Assembly: GCF_003334315.1 (NCBI RefSeq)
Contig: NZ_QOWR01000038.1
Source: Escherichia coli
Lineage (GTDB): Bacteria > Pseudomonadota > Gammaproteobacteria > Enterobacterales > Enterobacteriaceae
Strand: one strand, 5' to 3'
Length of the DNA stretch: 45,313 bases
The notes under the pieces were generated by a model, which ran no database searches, was not told the origin of the DNA, and was given only the letters and a program-made list of their open reading frames with translations. Positions within the stretch are counted from its first letter, which is position 1; each line of letters begins with the position of its first letter. Position numbers and translations under genes: made by a program. Shown here piece after piece: positions 30,902 through 45,313 of the stretch.

Positions 30902-32227
30902 CCAGGGAAAATTCATGAACATGCCCGTATTTACAGGCTTCGTAGTGTAGCAGGTTCTCAAATTTTGAACTTTATGAGTTAGCGCTATCACACAACAATC
31001 AATTATCCGATGATCGATTTGTAGATCATTTTCAGTGTTTTCTAATACCTCCATAGACAAATTGGAGGTCCAACGATGAGTAACCAGCACCCATTTATGC
31101 ATTTCGATGCCATCCCAGATTATCGCCAACAAGGTAAAGTCGAGCACAAGTTAACTGATATCATTTTGTTAACAATTTGCGCGGTGCTTTCCGGTCAAGA
31201 TGACTGGAAAGCTATCCATCTTTACGGCACTAGATGGTTAGATTTTCTCAAACGCTTTGGTGATTTTAGTCATGGTGTTCCCTCTGCCATTACCATTGCA
31301 AGAGTGATGGGAATGATTAGCGCGACACGCTTACAAAAGTGTTTTATCGAATGGATGAAATCCTGCTGTGAACTGACGGACGGTGAAGTGATCGCCATAG
31401 ACGGTAAAACCGTGCGTGGCTCTTATGATGATTCCCGTGGGCTTGGTGCTATCCATATGGTTAATGCGTTTGCGACAGAGAATGGCGTGTGCCTTGGACA
31501 ACATAAAGTTTACGAGAAGTCCAATGAGATAACCGCTATCCCTGAGTTGCTTCAACTGCTTGATATATCGGGTTGTTTAGTCACAATTGATGCGATGGGA
31601 TGCCAAAAGAAAATCGCGCAAAAGATCCTTGAAAAAAACGCTGATTACTTGCTGGCCGTGAAAGGAAATCAAGGCCGACTTGAGCAAGCTTTTGATAACT
31701 ATTTTGATATGAGCATGCTGCAAAAACATGATGGTGATTCTTACAGTACCCAAGAAAAATCGCGAGGCAGACAGGAAACACGACTGGCTTTAGTGAATGA
31801 AGATTTAAGTGTTTTGGGCGATCTTGAGTTTGATTGGCCAGGGCTAAAAACGATGGGAATTGTGGTATCGATTAGACAAGAATCAGCAGTGGCCCAAGAG
31901 TCAGAAGTAACGGTGCGATATTATATTAGTTCGAAAGCGCTCAGTGCTAAAGAATTGTTAAATGCTTCACGCTCGCACTGGTTAGTCGAGTCGATGCATT
32001 GGATGTTGGATACTGCATTTGGTGAAGATGCTTGCCGTAAACGAGCGGAAGAACGAGCAGAGAATTTCGCAAGGATCAGACAGATGTGTTTAAACATGCT
32101 AAAAAGTGAAACGACACTAAAAGCGAGTATTAAACACAAAAGAGCGATGTGCGCGATGGATCCGGAGTACCTTTTGAAGGTTCTGGGAAGCCTTTATTTA
32201 CGGGAATGTTCATGATTTTTCCGTGGG
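30902..32227 (+). mobile_element. Complete ISAs1-family insertion sequence (H-repeat type)
   Basis: Imperfect terminal inverted repeats: ccagggaaaattcatgaacatgcccg (30902-30927) against the complement of cgggaatgttcatgatttttccgtggg (32201-32227), about 23/27 identical. They enclose one intact 379-aa transposase gene. The ~1.33-kb size fits the family. Confidence 0.78.
31076..32215 (+). CDS. ISAs1-family (H-repeat-associated) DDE transposase
   Basis: 379 aa, MSNQHPFMHFDAIPDYRQQGKVEHKLTDIILLTICAVLSGQDDW...AIDGKTVRGS...TIDAMGCQKKIA. Recognised as the H-rpt/YhhI-like ISAs1 transposase family. No frameshift or internal stop. Confidence 0.9.
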   Translation: MSNQHPFMHFDAIPDYRQQGKVEHKLTDIILLTICAVLSGQDDWKAIHLYGTRWLDFLKRFGDFSHGVPSAITIARVMGMISATRLQKCFIEWMKSCCELTDGEVIAIDGKTVRGSYDDSRGLGAIHMVNAFATENGVCLGQHKVYEKSNEITAIPELLQLLDISGCLVTIDAMGCQKKIAQKILEKNADYLLAVKGNQGRLEQAFDNYFDMSMLQKHDGDSYSTQEKSRGRQETRLALVNEDLSVLGDLEFDWPGLKTMGIVVSIRQESAVAQESEVTVRYYISSKALSAKELLNASRSHWLVESMHWMLDTAFGEDACRKRAEERAENFARIRQMCLNMLKSETTLKASIKHKRAMCAMDPEYLLKVLGSLYLRECS

Positions 32228-32307
32228 AACGAGGATTAATTAAACTATTATCTTACTTAACTCTGCACACGGACTCAGGAGTAAGGACTTCTTCCGATAA
32301 AGAAAAA

Positions 32308-33729
32308 CTAGCCTAAAGAAACTATTTTTCCTAAAATATCAACAACATATTTTTTTGCGATAGCTTCATCTGACGATTCCGCATAGCAACGTAATTCCGG
32401 GGCATTACCTGATGGTCGCAAATGAAAAATGTCACCATTTGAAAGGCAGAATCGCGCGCCATCTGTTTGATCGATATGAGTACAACTTACTGAATCGATT
32501 CCCATTTTTTCCAAGAATTGTGCAGGAGCAGCGATTGCTCCGTCGATGATTTGACGGCTCGTTTCTGAGGGGAAATTTTTAATTCGGTCAGACCAGGTAA
32601 AACGCCGAGGCAATTTCTTTATCAATTGCGAAATTTCCCCTTTACTAGAAGCAACTAGCAGCATCAGTGCCGGTAAAACAGCATCGCGGGTGGGTAGAGA
32701 CGCTAAAGTTTTATTGTTAACTTGTAGATCAGATGCTAGCAAAAAACCGCCATTGGCCTCAAAGCCAGCGACTGCATTATATTTTTCAATTAGACTCTCA
32801 AAGCCTGCGATAACATACGGTGACCCAATTTTTGTTCTTTTAACTAATTCAAACTTCTGTGAGCATTCTATCGCAGTATTACAGCTTACCGGAACTGCCA
32901 GAGCGTTAATATTTAATTCTGCCGCAGCCAATAAACCAAGAATATCGCCCCGTAACCATTCCCCATTTTCATCTGAAACAAGCGGGCGATCACCATCACC
33001 ATCAGTTGAAAAAATAGCATCAAGGTTAAACTCAGCTGACCAACTCTTAGCACGCGCCCGATCTTCATCGCTTACAGCCTCAGTATCGATAGGCACAAAT
33101 TCATCGCTTCGGCCAAAAGAAATAACTTCCGCACCCAACGCACGGAATAATGGAGCGTACAAGTCGCGCCCAGCGCTTGAGTGCTCATAAATTCCCAAAC
33201 GCTTACCATCCAGTATTTTATTTTCAAATAATGAAACGTAGCGTGAAATATAAGCTTCAGCTCCGGCTGTATTTAATTGTAACTCAGGGAGTTCAAAGAC
33301 CCTTTCAAATTCATGTTTGCAACTTACAATAGCCGACTCATCGTTTTTAGAAATTTCACCATCCGGTCGATAAAACTTCAACCCATTACGATCAAATGGT
33401 ATATGGCTTCCAGTTACCATAATACACGGTATATTTTTCTGCATTGAATAATAGGCTAAAGCAGGCGTTGGTATGACACCATGGTACTCCACATCAAATC
33501 CCATTTTCTTAATCGCGTAAGCACAAGCCTGAGCGATTTCATAACTGCTTGGGCGATTATCGATGGCAAGCGCTACGGTTTTGAAATCGAAATGATTTCT
33601 AATGACTGCTAGAAAACTATGCGTAAACGCTGCACAAACATCATGTGTAAAATCAACAACTAGACCGCGAGCACCGCTAGTACCGAAAGCGATACGACTC
33701 TCACTGATAACTGTATTAGTACTTAACAT
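32308..33729 (-). CDS. manB: Phosphomannomutase (alpha-D-phosphohexomutase superfamily), divergent subtype
   Basis: Catalytic loop [11 protein letters not shown], metal loop [11 protein letters not shown], sugar loop GFEANGG and phosphate loop [10 protein letters not shown]. Last gene of the GDP-mannose/fucose module. The ATG at 33729 is preferred; a GTG at 33738 (track start) is possible. Confidence 0.85.
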
Positions 33730-33734
33730 GTTGT

Positions 33735-34481
33735 TCACTTTTTAATAAATTGTGGAAGTTTTGATAGATTTTTATATATCAAAGCTAATGGCCATATAAT
33801 TCCGTTAGTCTTCATAATACGTATATCTTCCATTGATTTATTTATCATGGATGATAAGGAGCGGTTACTAATGCCACCGACTCGCATTTTCACCAATACT
33901 TTAGGTAAATAGGAAATATTTATTCGTTTTTTTAAAATGTAACGCAGTAGAGAATCATAATCGGCAGAAATGCGATAGTCGAGAGAAAAATCACCAAACT
34001 TTTGATAACAGGAACGTTTCATATAAAATGAGGGATGAGGCGGCATCCACCCTAGTTGCATTTTTGTACGGTTATACGCTCCGCTTTTCCAGAGTCTGAC
34101 TCGCTTAGTCGTATCATTTTGAGATACATATTCTAAATCGCCATAGACGGCATCACAATGAGTCTTAGCAAATGTCTCCGCTATATCTGCAATAACATCA
34201 TCATAGGCAAGCAAATCGTCAGAATGCAAGAACCCAATAATATCACCCGTCGCTGCATTTATACCTTTATTAAGGGCATCATAAATTCCCTTATCTGCCT
34301 CACAAATGATTTTACTTACTTTCGTGCAATTTTGATTTATAAGTTCTATGGTGGCGTCTTTCGATGCACCGTCTACGATAATATATTCAATATCTGGATA
34401 GGATTGCCTCTCTAACGAAATTAATGTATCTCGTAAAGTGCTCTCGCTATTGTATGTAGCCGTAATGATTGAAATACGCAT
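33735..34481 (-). CDS. Family 2 glycosyltransferase (WcaE-like, about 248 aa)
   Basis: N-terminal GT-A signature [40 protein letters not shown] ... HSDD (DxD-like). Its start overlaps the manC stop by 1 nt (TGATG). Confidence 0.85.
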
Positions 34482-35896
34482 CAGTATCCTACTCCAGATG
34501 ATGATACACGAACAACATCATCCTCTTGCAAATAGACTCCAGACCTAACCTCTATAATTTCCAAGGGAATTTTACCGGGGTTCTCGATTGCATGAGGTAT
34601 ACCAACAGGTATATAAGTCGATTCATTCTCGGCGACCAAATAGGTTTTATCATCAAGATGAACTTTAGCTGTTCCAGAAACAACTACCCAATGTTCAGTA
34701 CGATGATAATGAATTTGCTTAGCGGTGATATGACCAGGTTGTACAATAACTTGTTTAACCTGATAACGTTCTCCTTCAGCTATAGTATCATGGCTTCCCC
34801 ATGGACGAAAAATTTCACGATGCTGCAAATATTCTGAACGTTGATTCTTTTTAAGTTGAGCAACAATATTTTTGACTTGTTGAACTTTGTCTTTATGCGC
34901 GACAAGTACCGCATCTTTTGTTTCAACAACAACGAGATCTTTAATTCCTACAGCACCAATAAGACGATGTTGTGAATAAAGATAGCTATCAGTGGTGTCT
35001 TCAACAAGTACATCACCGCGAATAGCGTTACCACTTTGATCTTTTAGACTAATTTCCCATAAGGCTGACCATGAACCGACATCACTCCATTGAGCGCTGA
35101 GTGGCATCACAACAGCTTCTGCTGTTTTCTCCATTACGGCATAATCAATTGATTCTTCAGGACAACAAGTAAAAGAAGCGCCATCAATACGGATAAAATC
35201 CAAATCCTGCATCGAGTTGTCTAATGCATTTTGACATGCGGTTAAAATATCGGGCCTGAATTTTTTTAATTCATTAATAAATACAGATGCCTTGAACATA
35301 AACATGCCACTATTCCAAAGATAACCACCATCGGTTAAATATTCTTTAGCGAGTTCAAGTTTCGGTTTTTCCACGAAGGCTGCAACTTTATAGCCATCCT
35401 GGCCAGTATTACTCAATACTTCTCCTGTTTTGATATAACCGTATCCTGTTTCTGGGGAAGTCGGGACAATACCAAAAGTAACTAACTTCCCTTTTTCAGC
35501 AAATTCTTTCGCTGCAAGCATAGCCTGTGTAAAATGATCTTGATCCTGAATCTCGTGATCGGCAGCCAAAACGAGAAGAATAGGATCCTCCCCAGAGGTT
35601 TGTGCCTGAAGAGCTGCAAGCGCAACCGCCGGAGCAGTATTACGCCCTTCAGGTTCAAGCAAAATACCACTGTGCTGTAAACCTTCTTTACGCAACTGTT
35701 CAGCGACAATGAAACGATGCGATTCATTGCAAATAACCAGTGCAGGATCATGTTCAACATCATCAAGTCGACGCAACGTTTCCTGCAACATTGTTAAACG
35801 GCTATTTAAAGAAAGGAATTGCTTCGGATACAATGTGCGTGAAAGAGGCCACAGTCGGGTCCCTGAGCCACCGGCCATTACGACGGGAAGGAGCAT
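34481..35896 (-). CDS. manC: Mannose-1-phosphate guanylyltransferase (bifunctional type II PMI/GMP architecture)
   Basis: 471 aa with N-terminal [20 protein letters not shown] (nucleotidyltransferase G-loop) and a C-terminal cupin ([19 protein letters not shown]). Confidence 0.93.
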
Positions 35897-35901
35897 ATCT
35901 A

Positions 35902-36363
35902 TTACCTTGAAAGAAAATAATTTTTGGTGTATTGATGAACCAATGTATTGGTGAGCAATGTTTCTACATCAAACCACTGATAAGCACTATGCTGTTTTGT
36001 TGGAAAGGTAAGCTTTTCATTTTGAAGGTGAATTTCATATCCATGCACTACATAATGCGTGGTAAAATCTTCACCTGAGAAATTATCATCGTAAAAATGC
36101 TCAAATATTCCCATGAAGAGCGCTTTCTTTATAGGAATATCGACACCCAATTCATCTAATGTGATTCGCTTAAATGCTTTTTCGAAAGACTCATCTTTGT
36201 AAATTCGTCCCCCAGGCACAAACCAAAAATTTTGTGCAGGACGATTTTGGCGCTGCCCAAGCAACGCCATTCCTTCACCATTTCTTATGATGAGATCTAT
36301 CGAGATTAGGGGAGTATTTTCAACAATTGATTTAAATAATTGCTGTTCTAATCTCTTATTCAT
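35902..36363 (-). CDS. gmm: GDP-mannose mannosyl hydrolase (Nudix)
   Basis: Nudix-like box [23 protein letters not shown]. The ATG at 36363 ([10 protein letters not shown]) lies 2 nt after the fcl stop; the track ORF starts 13 codons further upstream, inside fcl. Confidence 0.85.
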
Positions 36364-36365
36364 GA

Positions 36366-37331
36366 TTAGCCTCGAAATGAATTTAGATTTGCAAGATACC
36401 ATTCATAGGTTAATGCCAAACCATCATGGAGGGTATAGTTATAACTCCATCCTAGATTCTTTAAACGTGTGACATCCATAAGTTTACGCGGGGTACCATC
36501 AGGTTTAGTTTTATCAAACACTACTTGACCTTTATAACCAACTACAGCAGCCATCGTCTCAGCCATTTCACGAATAGTGCAATCGATACCAGTACCCACA
36601 TTGATGTGCGAGAGCATTGGTTGAGTATTTTCTTGATATATTTTATCTTCTAGTTCCATAACATGAATGGATGCGGCAGCCATATCATCGACATATAAAA
36701 ACTCACGCATGGGTGTACCAGAACCCCATACAACAACCTCAGAAGCATCTGACTCTTTAGCTTCATGGAAACGGCGCATGAGGGCAGGAATAACATGCGA
36801 ATTTTCCGGATGAAAATTATCATTCATACCATAAAGATTTGTGGGCATAACACTACGGTAATCCCTACCGTACTGGCGATTATATGATTCGCATAATTTA
36901 ATTCCGGCTATCTTCGCAATTGCATATGGCTCATTTGTCTGTTCTAAAACCCCAGTCAGTAAAGCTGATTCTTTCATTGGTTGCTCAGCATATTTTGGAT
37001 AGATACAACTTGAGCCTAAAAAAAGAAGCTTCTGTATACCAGCCATATGTGCTGAATGAATGATATTGCTCTCAATCATTAAGTTCTGGTAAATAAATTC
37101 GGCAGGATAGGTGTTATTTGCATGAATCCCCCCAACCTTAGCCGCCGCTAAATAGACTTGGTCGATATTATCATTTTCGAAAAATGTCTGAACATCAATC
37201 TGCTTCGTAAGATCTAATTCAGTGTGTGTTTTAGTGATTAACTCTACATCATCACGTAAGCTTAGCTCTCGACAAATTGCAGAGCCGACCATCCCCCGAT
37301 GTCCAGCAACATAGATCCGTTTTTTGCTCAT
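36366..37331 (-). CDS. fcl: GDP-L-fucose synthase (GDP-4-keto-6-deoxymannose 3,5-epimerase/4-reductase)
   Basis: 321 aa, the same length as E. coli Fcl. N-terminal Rossmann motif [15 protein letters not shown]; SDR catalytic region with YAIAK. Confidence 0.93.
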
Positions 37332-37333
37332 TG

Positions 37334-38452
37334 TTAACGCTCCAGGGATACTGCTACGTCGTACCCATGGCTTTTAAGGAGCGCATGTTGTTTTGCTTTA
37401 GCCAAATCTCCAGCGACCATTTCAGCACACAACTCTTCAACGGTGATTTCAGGCACCCAGCCTAGGACTTTTTTCGCCTTAGCAGGGTCGCCAAGTAGCG
37501 TTTCAACTTCTGCAGGGCGGAAGTAACGAGGGTCAACGCGTACAATAACATCACCTACGTTTACACCAACAGCGCAATCCGAGGTTTTATTAACAACCGT
37601 GGCAATCTCATCAATCCCCGTACCGGTAAACTCAAGTTCCAGGCCAACTTCTTTCGCAGACATACGAACAAATTCACGAACAGATATTTGTTTACCGGTT
37701 GCAATAACGAAATCTTCCGGTTGTTCCTGCTGCAGCATCATCCATTGCATGCGAACATAATCCCTGGCATGACCCCAATCGCGTAACGAATCCATATTCC
37801 CAAGATGCAGACAATTTTCAATGCCTTGCGAAATATTAGCAATCGCACGAGTAATTTTACGTGTTACAAACGTCTCACCACGACGCGGTGATTCATGGTT
37901 AAACAGAATGCCATTGCAAGCGTACATGCCATAAGATTCACGGTAGTTAATAGTGATCCAATAAGCATAAAGCTTCGCTACTGCGTACGGCGAACGCGGA
38001 TAGAAAGGGGTAGTTTCTTTCTGAGGAATTTCCTGGACTAAGCCGTATAATTCAGATGTTGAAGCTTGGTAAAAGCGTGTCTTCTTTTCCAACCCACAAA
38101 TACGAATAGCTTCGAGCAGACGTAAAGTTCCCATTGCATCGACATCTGCAGTATATTCAGGGGATTCAAATGAAACGGCAACATGTGATTGAGCTCCAAG
38201 ATTGTAAACCTCATCCGGACTGATATCTTTAATTAACCGGACTAAGTTTGAGGTATCAGTAAGATCACCATAATGGAGAGTAAAGTTATTATTGCTGCTA
38301 TATGGTGGCTGATATATATGATCGACTCTTTCAGTATTTAAGGAAGAAGCACGGCGTTTTATGCCGTGAACCTGGTAACCTTTCTCCAATAAAAATTCTG
38401 CAAGATAAGAACCATCTTGGCCTGTTACACCAGTAATTAGAGCAACTTTCAT
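37334..38452 (-). CDS. gmd: GDP-mannose 4,6-dehydratase
   Basis: [34 protein letters not shown]... from the ATG at 38452; the track starts at a GTG 3 codons upstream. [10 protein letters not shown] catalytic motif. Confidence 0.94.
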
Positions 38453-38453
38453 A

Positions 38454-39527
38454 TCATTCACCTTTAATTATTTCAGTTATTTTACCAATATAGATTTCTG
38501 GTTTATATTTATCCAGAGCCAACTTTCTGTTTAAATTAGACTTTTCAACTAAATCGGTAGCGGAATATACTACCTTGATTGCTTCCTTAATTGCATATGC
38601 TGATTTCTTAGTAATTAACAGACCATTATCTTCAGAAATCATATCTTCGAGATATTTATGCCTAGATGTTATTATCAAACAACCATATAACATAGCTTCT
38701 ATTATCGATATAGGTTGGGCTTCAGAACGATAAAAAGTGGGCAAAATAAAAACATCGGCATCAATGAGCACTTCTTTTTTAGCTTCACCAGATACTGTCC
38801 CAACATAACTTATGAAATCACTTTTCTTTATTCTATCAAAAAATATTTTTTCAGCTGCTTGTTGGTTTAGAAACTCATCACTTAAAATCTCACCTGCAAT
38901 TACTAAAGATAGATCATAACCCTCTTTCACCAGAGATTTTACAGCGCGTATTAAATGGAATACACCTTTCGAATACATGACATTTGAAAGATATAATATT
39001 TTCAATCCTTTCAACCGTTCCTGTTTATAAAATGTTGACACTGGTCCAGAATAACAATTAGTGACGACACTAACTTTCATTTTGTTATAAATTGCATATT
39101 GTTCTACCATTCTTGGTAAAAGAACAATAGAATGATCAATCAAATTATACACAAAATCTATACCACATCTAAATAAACTACGCTTTGATGCTCTAAATGA
39201 AATAAAATCGGAACCATGCAAATGGTTTATAATTTTCGCACCGAACATTTTACCCAAAAGAATAATATATGCATCGCGTAAAAAACCAAAAGTGGTCCGA
39301 CTGGTAGTAATATATATTTTTTTCTCTTTATTTATATTAGCAATTAAATAAAGAGGATATGCTATAATAATTTTAAGTAATTTTAGCAAAACACAAAAAA
39401 AACCATTTCCTTTTGATTGATAATCAATAAGTATTTTACTACCTTCATAATTCTTATAGATTAGATTAAATGCTACTGATTGCCCTGTTATTCTACCAGA
39501 GGACGGGCCAACAAAAAAAGTCAACAT
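38454..39527 (-). CDS. GT-B fold glycosyltransferase (GT4/GT1-like)
   Basis: 357 aa with a C-terminal EX7E motif ([21 protein letters not shown]). Very AT-rich. The stop lies 1 nt before the gmd ATG. Confidence 0.8.
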
Positions 39528-39556: not shown

Positions 39557-40633
39557 TCATCCAACACTTAGTATTGTTTTATATGGGTAAATGCCTAACC
39601 CACCCTCATTACTTGAAGGGTTCTTAAAAATCATTAATGTAAAATTAATCATCAATACTATAATCAGCATCGTTCGGAGTATCGTCTTGTTTTTTTCGCT
39701 CAACTGCCCAATATATAACAGCGTAATCACAGGAACAAACATAAACAAATCGACTAAACGATTAAAAATATGTATTTGGACAGAAAGCATTACAGCGATT
39801 ACGTAACAATAATTAAGGTATGATATAATATTAATTTCATCCCTGTTACAATTATTGTTTTTAAAACATACGGTGCATAAAAGATATATAACTGAAGGAA
39901 TTATCTTTAATATAACGCCTAATCCAGACCCCATTTCTGTTGGTTGGTTAAACATCGTAAAATCTGAATATACGCCATATTTTGTATTTCTAAATAATGG
40001 GTTACCTAAAATCAACTCTGCGACATTAACTTTTACGACGAGAAAATAAAAACAAACAAGGATAATCAAGCCTAAATAGGGGTTTAAATTAATCCTTTTT
40101 AATAAAATAAATGGTAGTATGATTAAAGCAGAAAGATGAAAGCAAGAACCTATCCCAATATATAATAAAAACTGTTTTTTATTCCCCTCAATTAAAGATA
40201 ATATCGCACACAGTACAAAGGCGACAGCTGCTGTTTGTCTTATCAATGAAAAAGAAGGGAGATACATAACACATATAACGCCAAAGACGCCAAGGAACCC
40301 TCTCATTTTTTTGGTTGAAAATAATGCCGTCAGTGTTATTAATGACATTATCATAAACATCAGTTGAGGTTCTTTTGATATATAATTACTTAGAGTTACG
40401 ACTAAATAAAATCCAACTTCAACATTAGAATTAACAAAGCTATCATGAATAATGTCATTATAAAGTCTAACATAATTCACATAGTCGGTTCCAATGTCAG
40501 TTCGTAAAGCGGATATAACCAAAAGAATTATAAATGTAGATGCAAAAAAGAAGCTATTTTGAACTCTAAATATTGAATTTCGCGGTAAAGAATTCAATAC
40601 TAAGCATGCAGCTAAGATTATTAAATAAAACAC
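39557..40633 (-). CDS. wzy: O-antigen polymerase (EpsG-like polytopic membrane protein)
   Basis: 358 aa with about 10-11 hydrophobic segments and no recognisable enzymatic motif. It sits inside the O-antigen cluster as the second large membrane protein besides wzx. GTG start with an AAGGAAA RBS. Confidence 0.7.
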   Translation of the reverse strand: MFYLIILAACLVLNSLPRNSIFRVQNSFFFASTFIILLVISALRTDIGTDYVNYVRLYNDIIHDSFVNSNVEVGFYLVVTLSNYISKEPQLMFMIMSLITLTALFSTKKMRGFLGVFGVICVMYLPSFSLIRQTAAVAFVLCAILSLIEGNKKQFLLYIGIGSCFHLSALIILPFILLKRINLNPYLGLIILVCFYFLVVKVNVAELILGNPLFRNTKYGVYSDFTMFNQPTEMGSGLGVILKIIPSVIYLLCTVCFKNNNCNRDEINIISYLNYCYVIAVMLSVQIHIFNRLVDLFMFVPVITLLYIGQLSEKNKTILRTMLIIVLMINFTLMIFKNPSSNEGGLGIYPYKTILSVG

Positions 40634-40644
40634 ACAAATTTCCT

Positions 40645-41637
40645 TTAATCAAGTTCATATGATGATTTATTTGGGTAAATCGATGCAAATGCAACATGTA
40701 TTTTATTCTTAGCAACAACAAAGTTTTTAATATCATCATCATCATTTATTACCAATATATTGCTTTTTTTGTTTTCAATCACACTTGTGATCTCGTCAAT
40801 ATTTCCATCAGTAACTGAATAATATTTAGCATATTTATATAAATTAAATGGTTTATAATTCCCAGTACATAATTGCCAATATCTAAAAAGGTATTGATTT
40901 ACATCGTCATTAGTTCTAAATTTCTGCTTTGCAGTCTTGACAAGAATATCTTTTTTTTCCAGCCAAACATCATCAAATGTGCTTTTTAAGTATGGTTGAG
41001 GAAGATGATGATCAAAAAAACCTGTAATACGAGGCCAAGGCATTAATAATAAACTTCGTAAAGATTTTTCAGGATATTTATAAGAAAACACACCCGATAT
41101 ATTTTTCTTAACAACTTCTTTTTTGTTAAAGGATTCGTTAATTTCCTTTATATCGTTCATAATGATATGAGATATATTTCCACAATCAAGAGCATTAAAT
41201 GCAAATGTATCACATGGTATTGTTTTTTTAAAAAAATAGGATTCCGGTATATTCTTTAATGTAAAAAAATCATCATTAAAGTAAATAAATCTCTCTGACA
41301 ACCCCTCAATTTTATGTAAGAATATCTCAATAACATGAGAACTAAAAAGAGGTAAATATTCCGATGGAATGTAATCAGAATGGTTAACAACCTTCAATTT
41401 TTTATTTTTAATATTTAGCCATTCGGGTATGTGTCCACATGTTATAAAATAGATAGTTCTAACCCATGGCATATTTTCTTCTATGCCTCTAAACCAGTAA
41501 CGCATCAAATCCCAATCACGAAAGCGAGACGTCGCTGAATGAGTATCACTGCAAGCAGGTTTATTTTTATAATATTCCTTTTGCCAATCAGGATCGTTAG
41601 AATCAACCCATGGTATAACAATATCTACAGGTTCCAC
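40645..41637 (-). CDS. Stealth-family hexose-1-phosphate transferase (glycosyl-phosphotransferase)
   Basis: All four Stealth conserved regions are visible. CR1: VDIVIPWVDSNDPDW. CR2: MRYWFRGIEENMPWVRTIYFITCGHIPEWL. CR3: FSSHVIEIFLHKIEGLSERFIYFNDDFF. CR4-like: LVINDDDD. GTG start with AAGGAAA 8 nt upstream. Confidence 0.82.
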   Translation of the reverse strand: MEPVDIVIPWVDSNDPDWQKEYYKNKPACSDTHSATSRFRDWDLMRYWFRGIEENMPWVRTIYFITCGHIPEWLNIKNKKLKVVNHSDYIPSEYLPLFSSHVIEIFLHKIEGLSERFIYFNDDFFTLKNIPESYFFKKTIPCDTFAFNALDCGNISHIIMNDIKEINESFNKKEVVKKNISGVFSYKYPEKSLRSLLLMPWPRITGFFDHHLPQPYLKSTFDDVWLEKKDILVKTAKQKFRTNDDVNQYLFRYWQLCTGNYKPFNLYKYAKYYSVTDGNIDEITSVIENKKSNILVINDDDDIKNFVVAKNKIHVAFASIYPNKSSYELD

Positions 41638-41639
41638 TT

Positions 41640-42383
41640 TTATTTCCTTAAACCTAGTTCTCTTAAGAGCTTGGCAAATTTTAATTTTGATATAATATAG
41701 AGCAGATATATTCTATTTAATAATGGAGCATTTCTTTGCTTCGCAATTTTTAATTTTTCTTGAAATAACGCAATTCTTTGTTTTGCAGAAACCCCATTCC
41801 ATTTAAAAATGGAAATATACTGTGGTACAGGATAAAATATAGCACCAGCGTTCAATAAATCTATGCTTAATAAATGGTCAGCACATATTTTATAATTTAA
41901 ATCATATTTATAATGTTTAAGTAAATTGAAGCGATACAGCGTTGATTGATGGCATGCTGGCATATAAATCCATTTTTGATTTATAGACTTAACCTTTTCA
42001 TACTTAAATACTGAACCAGTATCAATAATTACACCGCCACCAATTATATCGGGACTATTCTCGTCATTAACCTGGCTGATCACTTCATTTAATACTTCAT
42101 CTTGATAAAAAACATCACCCGCATTTAAAAAAATAACCCAATCACCAGTTACATATTGTAGTGATTTATTCATCGCATCATATATACCATTATCTTTTTC
42201 ACTTACGACTGTGGTTATTTTATCTTTAAATTTTTCTAGTACATCTAAAGTCCCATCTGTTGATGCACCATCAATAACAATATACTCAATTTCCTTGTAA
42301 GTTTGCTTCAAAACACTATTTATTGTAACTTCAAGATCATTTGCAGCATTGTAAACGACTGTCACTATAGAAATTTTAAACAT
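41640..42383 (-). CDS. Family 2 glycosyltransferase (WcaE-like, about 247 aa), paralogue of 33735-34481
   Basis: ISIVTVVYNAANDLEVTINSVLKQTYKEIEYIVIDGASTDGT ... NAGD. The N-terminal ~100 aa align with the other GT2. The start overlaps the wzx stop by 8 nt. Confidence 0.85.
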   Translation of the reverse strand: MFKISIVTVVYNAANDLEVTINSVLKQTYKEIEYIVIDGASTDGTLDVLEKFKDKITTVVSEKDNGIYDAMNKSLQYVTGDWVIFLNAGDVFYQDEVLNEVISQVNDENSPDIIGGGVIIDTGSVFKYEKVKSINQKWIYMPACHQSTLYRFNLLKHYKYDLNYKICADHLLSIDLLNAGAIFYPVPQYISIFKWNGVSAKQRIALFQEKLKIAKQRNAPLLNRIYLLYIISKLKFAKLLRELGLRK

Positions 42384-43647
42384 TCGTTCCCTTACAAAAT
42401 ATCGGTAATTTATTTTTAATTATCACATACATCATCAATTGATTAACAACGAGTTCAGTAATAAGTACTGTAATAGCAGCACCAAGTGCGCCATAAGAAT
42501 ACACCGCTGGGAATATACATATCATTGCGATAACACCACCAGTTATTACGATTTTGCTAAACATTTTAGCCATATTCAGAACAAGTAACGTCTGATAACC
42601 GAAAACATTACTTACAGCAATAATAAAGGGCATGCCTGATAAAATTTTCATAATGACTATTGATGAATGATAATCGCTCCCGTATAAAAATAATATCAAT
42701 TCTTTACTGTATATGAACAATAATAAGCTAATAATAAATGCAATACCACCTTGTACTTTGAGCAATTTTCTAATCACATCAAAAGCATGCTCCCTATTGT
42801 TTTTCATAAGAGCATTTATTCTTGGATATAATGCCTGAGACACAGGCCCAATTAATCCTTGTATAGCTAATCGTATTTTATCTGCTGCTGTGAAATATCC
42901 AACAATGGTTGGATTGGTAAAAATACCTAAAATCACGGTAATACTTCCAGTATAAATATTAATCGCGGCAGTTGAGATAAAAATATGCCATGCAGAAGCT
43001 AATTCTAATTTCATTTCAGGCCATGTTGGTGAATACCATTTAATCCATTTCTTTTCTATAACTATTGCTAATGCGATGCACCCAGACAGGATAAAAGTTA
43101 GTCCATTTATTAGCGCCACCAACCAAACATCTTCAGGCGAATGAATTAATAAAAAAATAGCGGGCACTGCAAGAATTTTTGAGGTTATGCTTGAAATAGC
43201 TACTTTAGCCATTTCTTCCTTACCTTGAAATAACCAGACTGGAAATAGCATATTTCCTACCACTGCTGAAAAGGCAATGATTAAAACATATTGATATTCA
43301 CCAGTAAATACATGGTCAGCGATAGTCCAACATCCGGAGAAAATAAAAGCACACACAATCAAAATTAACTTGCATGCCATAACATTCCAATACGTTTTGC
43401 TTACAAGTTCAACATCGTCTCGAATAATTGATATTTTTTTTGTTATAGAAAGATTAAAGCCAAAGTCAACTATCAGAATTGAATACTGTATTATTGCAAG
43501 GGTATATCCATAGATTCCGTAACTGTATGGCCCCAGCACCTTTACAAGGTAGGGTAAAGTTAACAATGGTATTAGGTATCCAACCCCCTGAATACTTAAT
43601 AGCGAAAATATGTTTATTAGTACTTTCTTATTCATCCACTGACTCAT
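42376..43647 (-). CDS. wzx: O-unit flippase (MOP/polysaccharide transporter family)
   Basis: 423 aa with about 12 hydrophobic segments. First gene after JUMPstart. The start may instead be the second ATG at 43635. Confidence 0.8.
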   Translation of the reverse strand: MSQWMNKKVLINIFSLLSIQGVGYLIPLLTLPYLVKVLGPYSYGIYGYTLAIIQYSILIVDFGFNLSITKKISIIRDDVELVSKTYWNVMACKLILIVCAFIFSGCWTIADHVFTGEYQYVLIIAFSAVVGNMLFPVWLFQGKEEMAKVAISSITSKILAVPAIFLLIHSPEDVWLVALINGLTFILSGCIALAIVIEKKWIKWYSPTWPEMKLELASAWHIFISTAAINIYTGSITVILGIFTNPTIVGYFTAADKIRLAIQGLIGPVSQALYPRINALMKNNREHAFDVIRKLLKVQGGIAFIISLLLFIYSKELILFLYGSDYHSSIVIMKILSGMPFIIAVSNVFGYQTLLVLNMAKMFSKIVITGGVIAMICIFPAVYSYGALGAAITVLITELVVNQLMMYVIIKNKLPIFCKGTNV

Positions 43648-43652
43648 TTATT

Positions 43653-43691
43653 CACGCTACCGCCCCTGGCTCAACAGCTACCAGTGCACTG
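43653..43691 (-). promoter_or_regulatory. 39-bp JUMPstart element containing the ops site (RfaH loading)
   Basis: The minus strand reads CAGTGCACTGGTAGCTGTTGAGCCAGGGGCGGTAGCGTG. The ops core GGCGGTAG is the complement of 43657-43664. Confidence 0.88.
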
Positions 43692-43961
43692 CACAAAATT
43701 CAGTATGTCGTGGACCAGCCCCCACAAACCTTCACGTTTGCATCGAATCTCGCCCACCAATTTAGCCCACTATTTTGGGCGCAATCCCTGTGTAAGACAA
43801 GGAGAAATCCGGCATTTTTTATCAAAAAACACCGCGCAATCACTAATTTTAGTTGTTGTTTTTAAAAGCAAAAACGGCAGCTGCTGTGAAATGAGAGTTC
43901 CTCAACCACAATCATCTGCCGTTCTGTTACTCACCAACATTCCGTGTTGTTGCGTAGTGTC
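43692..43961 (-). promoter_or_regulatory. galF-wzx intergenic region, expected to hold the O-antigen operon promoter
   Basis: A 270-bp non-coding region upstream of JUMPstart. By analogy with other E. coli O-antigen loci the operon promoter lies here. The -10/-35 elements were not assigned. Confidence 0.4.
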
Positions 43962-44855
43962 TTATTCTGAAAGCAGTTTCTCAATCCCTTTCCGGAACTT
44001 CGCCCCTTCTTTCAGGTTGCGCAGCCCATACTGGACAAACGCCTGCATGTAACCCATTTTCTTACCGCAGTCGTAGCTGTCGCCGCTCATCAGCATCGCG
44101 TCAACGGACTGTTTCTTCGCCAGCTCGGCGATAGCATCCGTCAACTGAATACGTCCCCAGGCACCCGGCGCGGTTTTTTCCAGTTCGGCCCAGATGTCGG
44201 CGGAAAGCACATAGCGCCCTACTGCCATCAGGTCGGAATCCAGCGTTTGCGGTTGGTCTGGTTTTTCGATGAACTCAACGATACGGCTCACTTTACCTTC
44301 TACGGTCAGCGGCTCTTTAGTCTGAATAACCGAGTACTCAGAAAGATCGCCAGGCATACGTTTCGCCAGCACCTGGCTGCGGCCTGTTTCGTTATAACGT
44401 GCCACCATCGCAGCGAGGTTATAACGCAGTGGGTCAGCGGATGCGCCATCGAGAATGATATCAGGCAGAACAACCACAAACGGGTTATCGCCAACGATCG
44501 GACGCGCGCACAGAATGGAGTGGCCCAGGCCCAGCGGCTGCGCCTGTCGCACGTTCATGATGGTTACGCCCGGCGGGCAAATGGACTGAACTTCCGCCAG
44601 CAGCTGACGCTTAACGCGTTGCTCCAGCAGAGCTTCCAGTTCATAGGAGGTGTCGAAGTGGTTTTCCACGGCATTTTTGGAGGAGTGGGTGACCAGGACG
44701 ATTTCTTTGATCCCTGCAGCAACAACTTCGTCGACGATGTATTGGATCATCGGCTTGTCAACGATCGGTAGCATCTCTTTAGGAATGGCCTTGGTGGCAG
44801 GGAGCATATGCATGCCCAGCCCGGCTACCGGAATGACTGCTTTCAAATTAACCAT
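43962..44855 (-). CDS. galF: UTP--glucose-1-phosphate uridylyltransferase paralogue GalF
   Basis: 297 aa, [43 protein letters not shown]. Recognised as GalF, at the conventional position upstream of an O-antigen cluster. Core-like GC content. Confidence 0.93.
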
Positions 44856-44860
44856 TATCG

Positions 44861-45313
44861 GGTAATGACTCCAACTTATTGATAGTGTTTTATGTTCAGA
44901 TAATGCCCGATGACTTTGTCATGCAGCTCCACCGATTTTGAGAACGACAGCGACTTCCGTCCCAGCCGTGCCAGGTGCTGCCTCAGATTCAGGTTATGCC
45001 GCTCAATTCGCTGCGTATATCGCTTGCTGATTACGTGCAGCTTTCCCTTCAGGCGGGATTCATACAGCGGCCAGCCATCCGTCATCCATATCACCACGTC
45101 AAAGGGTGACAGCAGGCTCATAAGACGCCCCAGCGTCGCCATAGTGCGTTCACCGAATACGTGCGCAACAACCGTCTTCCGGAGACTGTCATACGCGTAA
45201 AACAGCCAGCGCTGGCGCGATTTAGCCCCGACATAGCCCCACTGTTCGTCCATTTCCGCGCAGACGATGACGTCACTGCCCGGCTGTATGCGCGAGGTTA
45301 CCGACTGCGGCCT
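44861..45313 (-). mobile_element. IS1 (right-end portion, inverted relative to the copy at 1-96), cut by the window edge
   Basis: Begins GGTAATGACTCCAACTTATTGATAGTGTTTTATGTTCAGATAATGCCCGATGAC, the IS1 terminal repeat and flank, and continues through insB. Confidence 0.93.
44876..45313 (-). CDS. insB: IS1 transposase InsB (partial; N-terminus beyond the window)
   Basis: ...[36 protein letters not shown]...HYLNIKHYQ*. The reading frame stays open to the window end. Confidence 0.9.

Follow-up and report, generated by a model that had tools for sequence, protein, structure and literature searches.

We have examined a stretch of 45,313 nucleotides of Escherichia coli DNA (contig NZ_QOWR01000038.1; the whole stretch is called the window below) that carries on its minus strand a set of O-antigen genes, and among them a gene with a GTG start whose 330 aa product is, judged by its sequence and modelled fold, a Stealth-family sugar-1-phosphate transferase. 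Along the minus strand the order is galF, JUMPStart, wzx, GT2a, Stealth, wzy, GT4, gmd, fcl, gmm, manC, GT2b and manB (GT, glycosyltransferase), and all 11 cluster open reading frames (ORFs), from wzx to manB, are full length in the window (Table 1). An earlier note on this DNA, made without database searches, had pointed to the place of the Stealth gene between wzy and a GT2 gene and to its tight translational coupling, and the spacing bears this out, with 2 nt between GT2a and the Stealth gene, 11 nt between the Stealth gene and wzy, and wzx and GT2a overlapping by 8 nt. By its gene content the 11-gene set is an intact Wzx/Wzy O-antigen cluster, the product of which would, as an O antigen, be ligated to lipid A-core. 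No initiating transferase was found among the cluster genes, and a scan for promoters and terminators gave no enrichment above shuffles.

Family, fold and catalytic residues

The membership of the protein in the Stealth family was first suggested by its motifs, and it now finds support in hidden Markov models, profile alignment, fold and catalytic residues alike. Scanned alone against Pfam, the protein matches Stealth_CR2, which at ~100 residues is the best conserved part of the family, with 136.7 bits (E=4.3e-40, cutoff 39.4) over profile positions 1-103 of 108. The other conserved regions (CR) score lower, with 26.4 bits for Stealth_CR1 (0.8 bits short of the curated cutoff of 27.2), 21.1 bits for Stealth_CR3 (E=3e-4, cutoff 24.2) and 13.1 bits for Stealth_CR4 (E=0.098, at a permissive threshold only). 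The four regions follow one another in the canonical CR1-CR4 order. We collected 2214 homologues at E<=1e-10, nearly all of ~330 aa, and aligned 29 diverse members; scanned one by one, these gave CR2 in 29/29, CR1 in 27/29, CR3 in 25/29 and CR4 in 12/29. The IDVVYTF-like motif of CR1 reads VDIVIPWV here (residues 4-11), and D5, W10 and D15 are invariant across the 29 aligned homologues, as are H211 and R241. The CR4 tetrapeptide reads VIND and not C(L/I)ND, with N298 and D300 invariant in the family alignment, and the structural matches described below extend over this region. The four peptides quoted by the earlier note, PWVDSNDPDW (residues 9-18), MPWVRTIYFITCGHIPEWL (56-74), GLSERFIYFNDDFF (112-125) and INDDDD (297-302), are all present in the protein. 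They had been taken to represent all Stealth conserved regions, a conclusion that stands, the four regions being collinear; as proof the quoted motifs fall short, because two of them sit in CR2 and none comes from CR3. The Prokaryotic Genome Annotation Pipeline (PGAP) already labels the protein as "Stealth CR1 domain-containing protein", and no NCBIfam model matched either this protein or Wzy. In a scan of contigs for relatives, gut Bacteroidales and Clostridia appeared at 40-49% identity among the matches listed.

Sequence comparison with the PDB retrieves GNPTAB (2e-26) and CpsY (3.5e-22). With a profile built from the 29 members the values become 2.6e-40 for the GlcNAc-1-phosphotransferase (GNPTAB, 7s6n; GlcNAc, N-acetylglucosamine), in three collinear segments that correspond to CR1+2, CR3 and CR4, and 2.6e-38 for CpsY of Mycobacterium tuberculosis (8j2n). 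An AlphaFold2 model made from the same alignment has a mean predicted local distance difference test (pLDDT) of 93.1 and a predicted template modelling score (pTM) of 0.91. When this model was compared with the PDB by Foldseek, the best 13 matches were without exception chains of GNPTAB or CpsY (E between 1e-16 and 3.6e-22, query template modelling (TM) score 0.64-0.75), and the next ones were generic GT-A glycosyltransferases at E~2e-3, leaving a gap of ~13 orders of magnitude. The fold and the catalytic residues are thus common to the three proteins at an identity of only 17-20%. GNPTAB differs in its large inserted domains and in its acceptor, the mannose of N-glycans, and CpsY in an additional N-terminal region and in having been assayed on glucan.

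In GNPTAB, Mg2+ is held by Asp408 and Asn1151, Arg986 grips the transferred beta-phosphate, His956 is the general base, and Glu389, Asn406, Asp407 and Gln992 contact sugar and ribose (PMC9388126). The CpsY equivalents are D324 for Mg2+, R419 for the beta-phosphate, and E305 and N322 for sugar and ribose (PMC10668966). Transfer has been proposed to occur in one step, and the residues were validated by mutagenesis (PMC9388126, PMC10668966). In the window protein the CR2 residues E104, N121, D122 and D123 correspond to E389, N406, D407 and D408 of GNPTAB (E305, N322 and D324 in CpsY), and the profile alignment places H211 on H956, R241 on R986 (the His-Arg spacing is 30 residues in both) and N298 on N1151; Q248 is the equivalent of Gln992. 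All eight residues are therefore conserved, and they are also kept in the homologues from the O173, O152 and Buttiauxella clusters described below.

Table 1. Coordinates of the Stealth gene, the O-antigen cluster and the flanking elements in the window.
Feature	Position	Strand	Basis
Stealth-family sugar-1-phosphate transferase gene (predicted), 330 aa, GTG start	40645..41637	minus	ORF list
CR1, residues 2-22	41572..41634	minus	Pfam PF17101, 26.4 bits, E=5.7e-6
CR2, residues 38-139, with E104, N121, D122, D123 (putative sugar-/Mg-binding)	41221..41526	minus	Pfam PF11380
CR3, residues 210-248, with H211 (putative general base), R241 (beta-phosphate), Q248	40894..41010	minus	Pfam PF17102
CR4, residues 297-330, with N298 (putative Mg ligand)	40648..40749	minus	Pfam PF17103; profile alignment to GNPTAB CR4
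galF	43962..44855	minus	99% identical to chromosomal E. coli galF
JUMPStart element, 39 bp, ending in exact ops GGCGGTAGCGTG (43653-43664)	43653..43691	minus	sequence match
wzx flippase, 419 aa from PGAP start (ORF runs to 43647)	42376..43635	minus	Pfam Polysacc_synt 176.5 bits
GT2a glycosyltransferase	41640..42383	minus	Pfam Glycos_transf_2
wzy O-antigen polymerase, EpsG family	39557..40633	minus	Pfam EpsG 152.1 bits
GT4 glycosyltransferase	38454..39527	minus	Pfam Glycos_transf_1
GDP-L-fucose genes, block	34481..38452	minus	ORFs; PGAP names on 99.9%-identical plasmid copy; Pfam on identical loci
gmd	37334..38452	minus	GDP-L-fucose pathway
fcl	36366..37331	minus	GDP-L-fucose pathway
gmm	35902..36363	minus	GDP-L-fucose pathway
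manC	34481..35896	minus	GDP-L-fucose pathway
GT2b glycosyltransferase	33735..34481	minus	Pfam Glycos_transf_2
manB phosphomannomutase	32308..33729	minus	Pfam PGM_PMM I-IV; PGAP name
ISAs1-family element (transposase 31076-32215)	30904..32234	plus	Pfam DDE_Tnp_1 + DDE_Tnp_1_assoc; boundaries approximate
IS1, partial, to contig end	44861..45313		100% match to IS1A of strain HCP17S3_I4

Typed relatives and serogroup assignment

Stealth genes had been described as uncommon in enteric O-antigen clusters, and the counts agree. When 5426 complete E. coli genomes were searched with the Stealth gene by low-stringency blastn, 37 proved to contain Stealth-like genes, part of these in capsule loci, and sugars joined through a phosphodiester are recorded in only 6 of 182 E. 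coli serogroups, namely O84, O152, O160, O172, O173 and O181 (glycan NMR review; NMR, nuclear magnetic resonance). Two of these six, O173 and O152, have a Stealth gene directly upstream of wzy, a parallel that is correlative, and the presence of such a gene in an enteric O-antigen cluster is accordingly not new. The O173 enzyme (strain SE11, WP_012565135.1) has ~330 aa, is 46% identical to that of the window and precedes an EpsG-type wzy; the cluster (named "O173 family" by PGAP) runs ISAs1, wzx, GT2, gmd, fcl, gmm, manC, manB, Stealth, wzy, GT2, GT4, gnd. This is the inventory of the window cluster (wzx, two GT2, one GT4, Stealth, wzy and gmd-fcl-gmm-manC-manB) in a different order, with identities of 60% for Wzx, 48% for the wzx-adjacent GT2 (GT2a), 34% for Wzy and 29-34% for GT2b. 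The O152 enzyme (strain LH13-b, WP_112013413.1) is likewise 46% identical and shares the Stealth-then-wzy arrangement with the window (Wzy 33%, Wzx 31%), in a cluster ("O152 family", PGAP) that runs galF, rmlBDAC, WbsX, wzx, Stealth, wzy, GT2, GT4, gnd and has dTDP-rhamnose genes instead of the GDP-fucose genes. By BLASTP the GT4 of the window matched neither the O173 nor the O152 GT4.

Between O173 and O152 the module Stealth-wzy-GT2-GT4 is homologous throughout (49, 36, 50 and 50% identity). Stealth followed by wzy is also found in clusters of Buttiauxella, Citrobacter sedlakii and Proteus, and Wzy identity among the three E. coli clusters amounts to 33-36%. This recurrence of the adjacency, from O173 and O152 to the three other genera, suggests that Stealth and wzy are inherited together as a phosphotransferase-polymerase module. 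There may also be a functional link, with Wzy recognising the phosphate-containing unit. The closest parallel is in Buttiauxella agrestis (AP023184), where the same 11 genes recur in unchanged order, with wcaM-galF on one side and gnd on the other, that is, at the canonical locus and free of insertion sequences (IS). For ten of the 11 proteins the identity to those of the window is 48-89% (Stealth 63% by BLASTP and 64-65% in the database search, Wzx 66%, Wzy 48%, GT2b 75%), and the window GT4 had no BLASTP match to its positional equivalent at E<=1e-3. Citrobacter sedlakii has a partial orthologous cluster, again at the canonical locus without IS elements. The ratio of nonsynonymous to synonymous differences (pN/pS) of the Stealth gene against its Buttiauxella orthologue is 0.30, with synonymous sites saturated, and therefore points to purifying selection. 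A tblastn survey of gene neighbourhoods in Bacteroidales and Clostridia told us nothing further, as the divergence of Wzx and Wzy is too rapid for it. Besides, E. coli strain 2017.06.04CC (NZ_AP025209.2 1719717-1735810) has a generically annotated, untyped O-antigen cluster in which an EpsG-type gene is followed by the gene of a "hypothetical protein" of 338 aa, weakly similar in nucleotide sequence to Stealth CR2; there yegH-IS1-galF lies upstream, which suggests loss of the colanic-acid (wca) region.

We tested published type-specific primers for O173 wzy, O168 wzx and O84 wzx against the window, allowing up to 4 mismatches, and all three sets failed. The O173 pair was controlled on SE11 (NC_011415 2350040-2368276), where it matches perfectly and gives a product of 605 bp (606 bp published); identity with O173 is also contradicted by Wzx (60%) and Wzy (34%), against a criterion of ~95%. 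O168 (Shigella dysenteriae type 4) had been considered because S. dysenteriae 1012 has proteins identical to those of the window, and O84 on account of its fucosyl phosphate; for neither pair was there a positive control. The cluster copy of S. dysenteriae 1012 is a plasmid-type unit bounded by IS26 and not the chromosomal locus, which also bears against O168. The PGAP names for the window cluster are generic ("flippase", "EpsG family protein"), in contrast to the O173 and O152 genes, which are named by type. Since the type primers fail and the names are generic, we conclude from these comparisons that the cluster represents an untyped genotype, closest to O173. As the genotype is different from O173, the linkages are presumably different as well.

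Strain SE11, which we take to be of serotype O152, has an O173 genotype by both its PGAP names and the O173 wzy primers, so that a discrepancy between serology and genotype may exist there. An ISAs1 (ISEc1) element also abuts the SE11 cluster.

Displaced location and mobile copies

The earlier note had treated the cluster as an ordinary O-antigen locus, and here it has to be corrected: the cluster lies at yiaU, flanked by IS elements and without gnd, and is plasmid-mobile elsewhere. Positions 1-30903 of the window are ordinary E. coli chromosome (glyS-xyl-malS-yia-lyxK-sgb-yiaT-yiaU), far from the his-gnd-galF region. Beyond 30903 the homology to the chromosome is lost; this point falls 24 nt inside the 3' end of yiaV, which is thereby truncated to ~24 nt, and the ISAs1-family element bridges this remnant and manB (the contigs of other assemblies break at 32198-32234). 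On the other side the IS1 insertion lies 5 nt ahead of the galF start codon, exactly where another contig carrying the cluster (L010) diverges (44860/44861), and the opposite end of the window contig (1-96) is likewise an IS1 terminus. No gnd was found in the window, and where a galF-gnd arrangement would place it we find ISAs1, truncated yiaV and yiaU. The same yiaV-ISAs1-manB junction is present in an independent read set (ERR271230, contig L002), and for this reason it is not an assembly artefact. Off-locus O-antigen clusters therefore exist, as the window shows.

In L010 the same cluster, 99.95% identical, occupies the canonical wcaM-galF position. Its wcaM-galF segment is 99% identical to some E. 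coli chromosomes, and the galF of the window is E. coli-like to the same degree. The canonical copies in L010 and in Buttiauxella indicate a canonical origin, the present site being secondary. The wcaM-galF allele that goes with this cluster (L010:1-1270; window 43640-44875) is rare, with ~20-30 of the 5426 complete E. coli genomes matching at >=90%, and the remaining ones match the L010 wcaM at only 60-80%.

Of the complete E. coli genomes, 5426 in number, only one had the cluster; there it is carried by the IncFII plasmid p3575-NDM-5, between IS26 copies and with galF and ISAs1 truncated. The IS26-bounded unit corresponds to window positions 31865/31909-44330, its copies being 99.9% identical to the window, and it was also found on two Citrobacter portucalensis plasmids, on another E. 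coli plasmid and, with manC interrupted by IS1, on a plasmid-type contig of S. dysenteriae 1012. A larger IS26-bounded unit, which keeps part of wcaM and has wzx and fcl truncated, lies in the chromosome of Klebsiella sp. (AP022201). Direct flanking by IS26, at 99.9% identity, holds for the copies of p3575-NDM-5, S. dysenteriae 1012, JBIGPK010000003 and Klebsiella sp. The plasmid units retain the JUMPStart region. The window itself is free of IS26, and its cluster is flanked by the ISAs1-family element and IS1.

A complete Wzx/Wzy cluster on a plasmid has a precedent in form I of Shigella sonnei, which is carried by pINV and flanked by IS elements. The IS26-bounded copies resemble it in both respects; the difference is that form I is on an invasion plasmid, whereas here the plasmids are of the IncFII resistance type, and the copy of the window is chromosomal. 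It is possible, although we would hold to it only tentatively, that the cluster behaves as a mobile serotype cassette, i.e., a self-sufficient WecA-dependent operon with its own JUMPStart that IS elements have moved from a canonical galF-gnd locus to a second chromosomal site and, in IS26-bounded form, to plasmids with the NDM-5 carbapenemase and to others, across E. coli, Shigella, Citrobacter and Klebsiella. If such a cassette were expressed, recipients would gain a phosphodiester-containing O antigen and resistance plasmids could switch serotype.

A weaker variant of the same idea is that off-locus clusters explain the serogroups for which no genes have been found. The O20, O57 and O60 clusters have been reported as never located, so that they must lie elsewhere (PMC7685785, PMC4379981, PMC4732683, PMC5343136). 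O20 and O60 are without GlcNAc and N-acetylgalactosamine (GalNAc) (E. coli O-antigen literature), and O57 strains are reported to retain galF at the normal locus. That the window holds one of these three clusters is unlikely, since O20 and O60 lack GlcNAc and GalNAc and O57 is not among the serogroups with sugar-phosphate-sugar bridges; O57, with its galF in the usual place, is disfavoured on both counts and looks an unlikely case for the weaker variant too.

Predicted reaction and its alternatives

The best explanation of the whole, in which we have considerable confidence from sequence, model and analogy, is that the Stealth enzyme would add one glycosyl-phosphate bridge to each O-unit repeat. 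There is no hydrophobic segment in the protein (maximum Kyte-Doolittle value 0.93), and for this reason it is expected to act at the cytoplasmic face on intermediates linked to undecaprenyl pyrophosphate (Und-PP). As a soluble cytoplasmic enzyme it would move a sugar-1-phosphate from a nucleotide sugar to a hydroxyl of the growing Und-PP-linked O-unit, releasing a nucleoside monophosphate and making one phosphodiester bridge per repeat. By analogy with the GlcNAc-1-phosphotransferase, D123 and N298 would bind Mg2+, R241 would orient the transferred beta-phosphate, H211 would deprotonate the acceptor hydroxyl and E104 and Q248 would hold the sugar, in a one-step transfer. The donor is most likely a UDP-hexose or UDP-N-acetylhexosamine (UDP-Glc, UDP-Gal or UDP-GlcNAc). 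Because the cluster is without an initiating transferase, WecA presumably starts the unit with GlcNAc, as described for most E. coli O antigens (E. coli O-antigen review). The three glycosyltransferases (two GT2 and one GT4) together with the Stealth enzyme lead us to predict a repeat of five sugars, L-fucose included, and one phosphate, which may lie in the backbone or outside it. Wzx would flip this unit and Wzy would polymerise it.

A glycosyl-phosphate linkage in the O-unit is what the earlier note had expected, and the domain, profile, fold and residue evidence, together with the Stealth-wzy parallels in O173 and O152, supports it well in silico. The same note went too far in calling the enzyme "the specificity determinant" of the system: the antigen is defined by three glycosyltransferases and by Wzy as well, and it is GT4, GT2b and Wzy that diverge most from O173.

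Several observations weigh against the prediction of one bridge per repeat. In the scan of the single protein CR2 alone passes its curated Pfam cutoff, with CR1, CR3 and CR4 each under theirs. The allele of the window has (GAT)4 at 40738-40749, read as DDDD, where the common 329-aa allele has (GAT)3, so that an Asp is added directly after the putative Mg-binding N298; neither the common allele nor any of the O173, O152 and Buttiauxella proteins has this residue. (A second allele difference, F124I in codon 124 at 41266-41268, is beside the NDD motif at a variable position.) The donor sugar cannot be read from the sequence, identity to the O152 and O173 enzymes being equal at 46%, and the cluster matched no serogroup of known structure. 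Finally, the displaced cluster may or may not be the expressed O antigen of the strain, with IS1 only 5 nt upstream of galF, although the wzx-proximal JUMPStart region is intact.

The donor could instead be GDP-beta-L-fucose made by gmd-fcl of the cluster, with beta-L-fucosyl-1-phosphate installed as reported for O84 and the three glycosyltransferases using only housekeeping UDP-sugars or GDP-mannose. The GDP-Man/GDP-Fuc route is indeed the sole dedicated sugar pathway in the cluster, and the linkage exists in the species, a beta-L-fucopyranosyl-phosphate being cited for the O84 O-antigen (E. coli O-antigen review). Yet the O152 cluster has its 46%-identical Stealth gene without GDP-fucose genes, so that Stealth genes do not track fucose, which counts against a fucose donor, as does the failure of the O84 primers. 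All characterised Stealth members are, to our knowledge, users of UDP-sugars. The residues of GNPTAB that contact uridine-ribose and sugar (D122, E104 and Q248 here) are unchanged, and the donors confirmed for GNPTAB and CpsY are UDP-GlcNAc (PMC9388126, PMC10668966). We thus regard a GDP-fucose donor as improbable. That the gene, or the whole cluster, is a non-functional passenger of IS elements, unexpressed or catalytically incompetent, is to us more doubtful still. Its displacement, the IS1 abutting galF, the absence of gnd and the additional Asp beside the metal-binding Asn would fit such a state, and decay is apparent in other copies (manC hit by IS1 in S. dysenteriae 1012, wzx and fcl truncated in Klebsiella sp.). 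However, in the window the 11 ORFs, the JUMPStart/ops and the catalytic residues are all intact, the arrangement recurs in an independent sample, and the 99.9% identity of the copies implies recent transfers and little time for decay.

The last alternative, which we consider very remote, is a capsule polymerase like CsaB and CsxA of Neisseria, making poly(hexose-phosphate) independently of the O-unit. CsaB and CsxA of N. meningitidis serogroups A and X are Stealth-family enzymes that transfer hexose-1-phosphate; they build homopolymers processively and belong to capsule loci of the ABC-transporter type (group 2). The protein family is common to both, and in E. coli, too, some Stealth genes have been annotated as part of capsule loci ("CapC"). 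Against this, no kps or ABC-transporter capsule genes were found anywhere in the window. The gene belongs to a wzx/wzy operon, where it stands in translational coupling between GT2a and wzy, and its orthologues, like its homologues from O152 and O173, all come from galF-gnd O-antigen loci. The chemistry would be the same as in CsaB and CsxA, with the enzyme of the window predicted to act once per Und-PP-linked repeat in the Wzx/Wzy pathway.

The predicted reaction would give this untyped O antigen of E. coli a glycosyl-phosphate bridge that is labile to acid, and the cluster is the third E. coli case of the Stealth-wzy pairing after O152 and O173. We know of no biochemical characterisation of a Stealth enzyme in the Wzx/Wzy pathway, and the words "Stealth", "phosphotransferase" and "phosphodiester" do not occur in the E. 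coli O-antigen review. The enzyme alone is of modest weight; more noteworthy than the Stealth gene itself is that the cluster is mobile, lies off-locus and also occurs on plasmids. Typing pipelines that take only the galF-gnd interval would miss displaced clusters, and standard schemes would miss or mis-assign this operon. This has relevance for in-silico serotyping, for vaccine and phage-receptor predictions, and for the whereabouts of the "missing" O20, O57 and O60 clusters.

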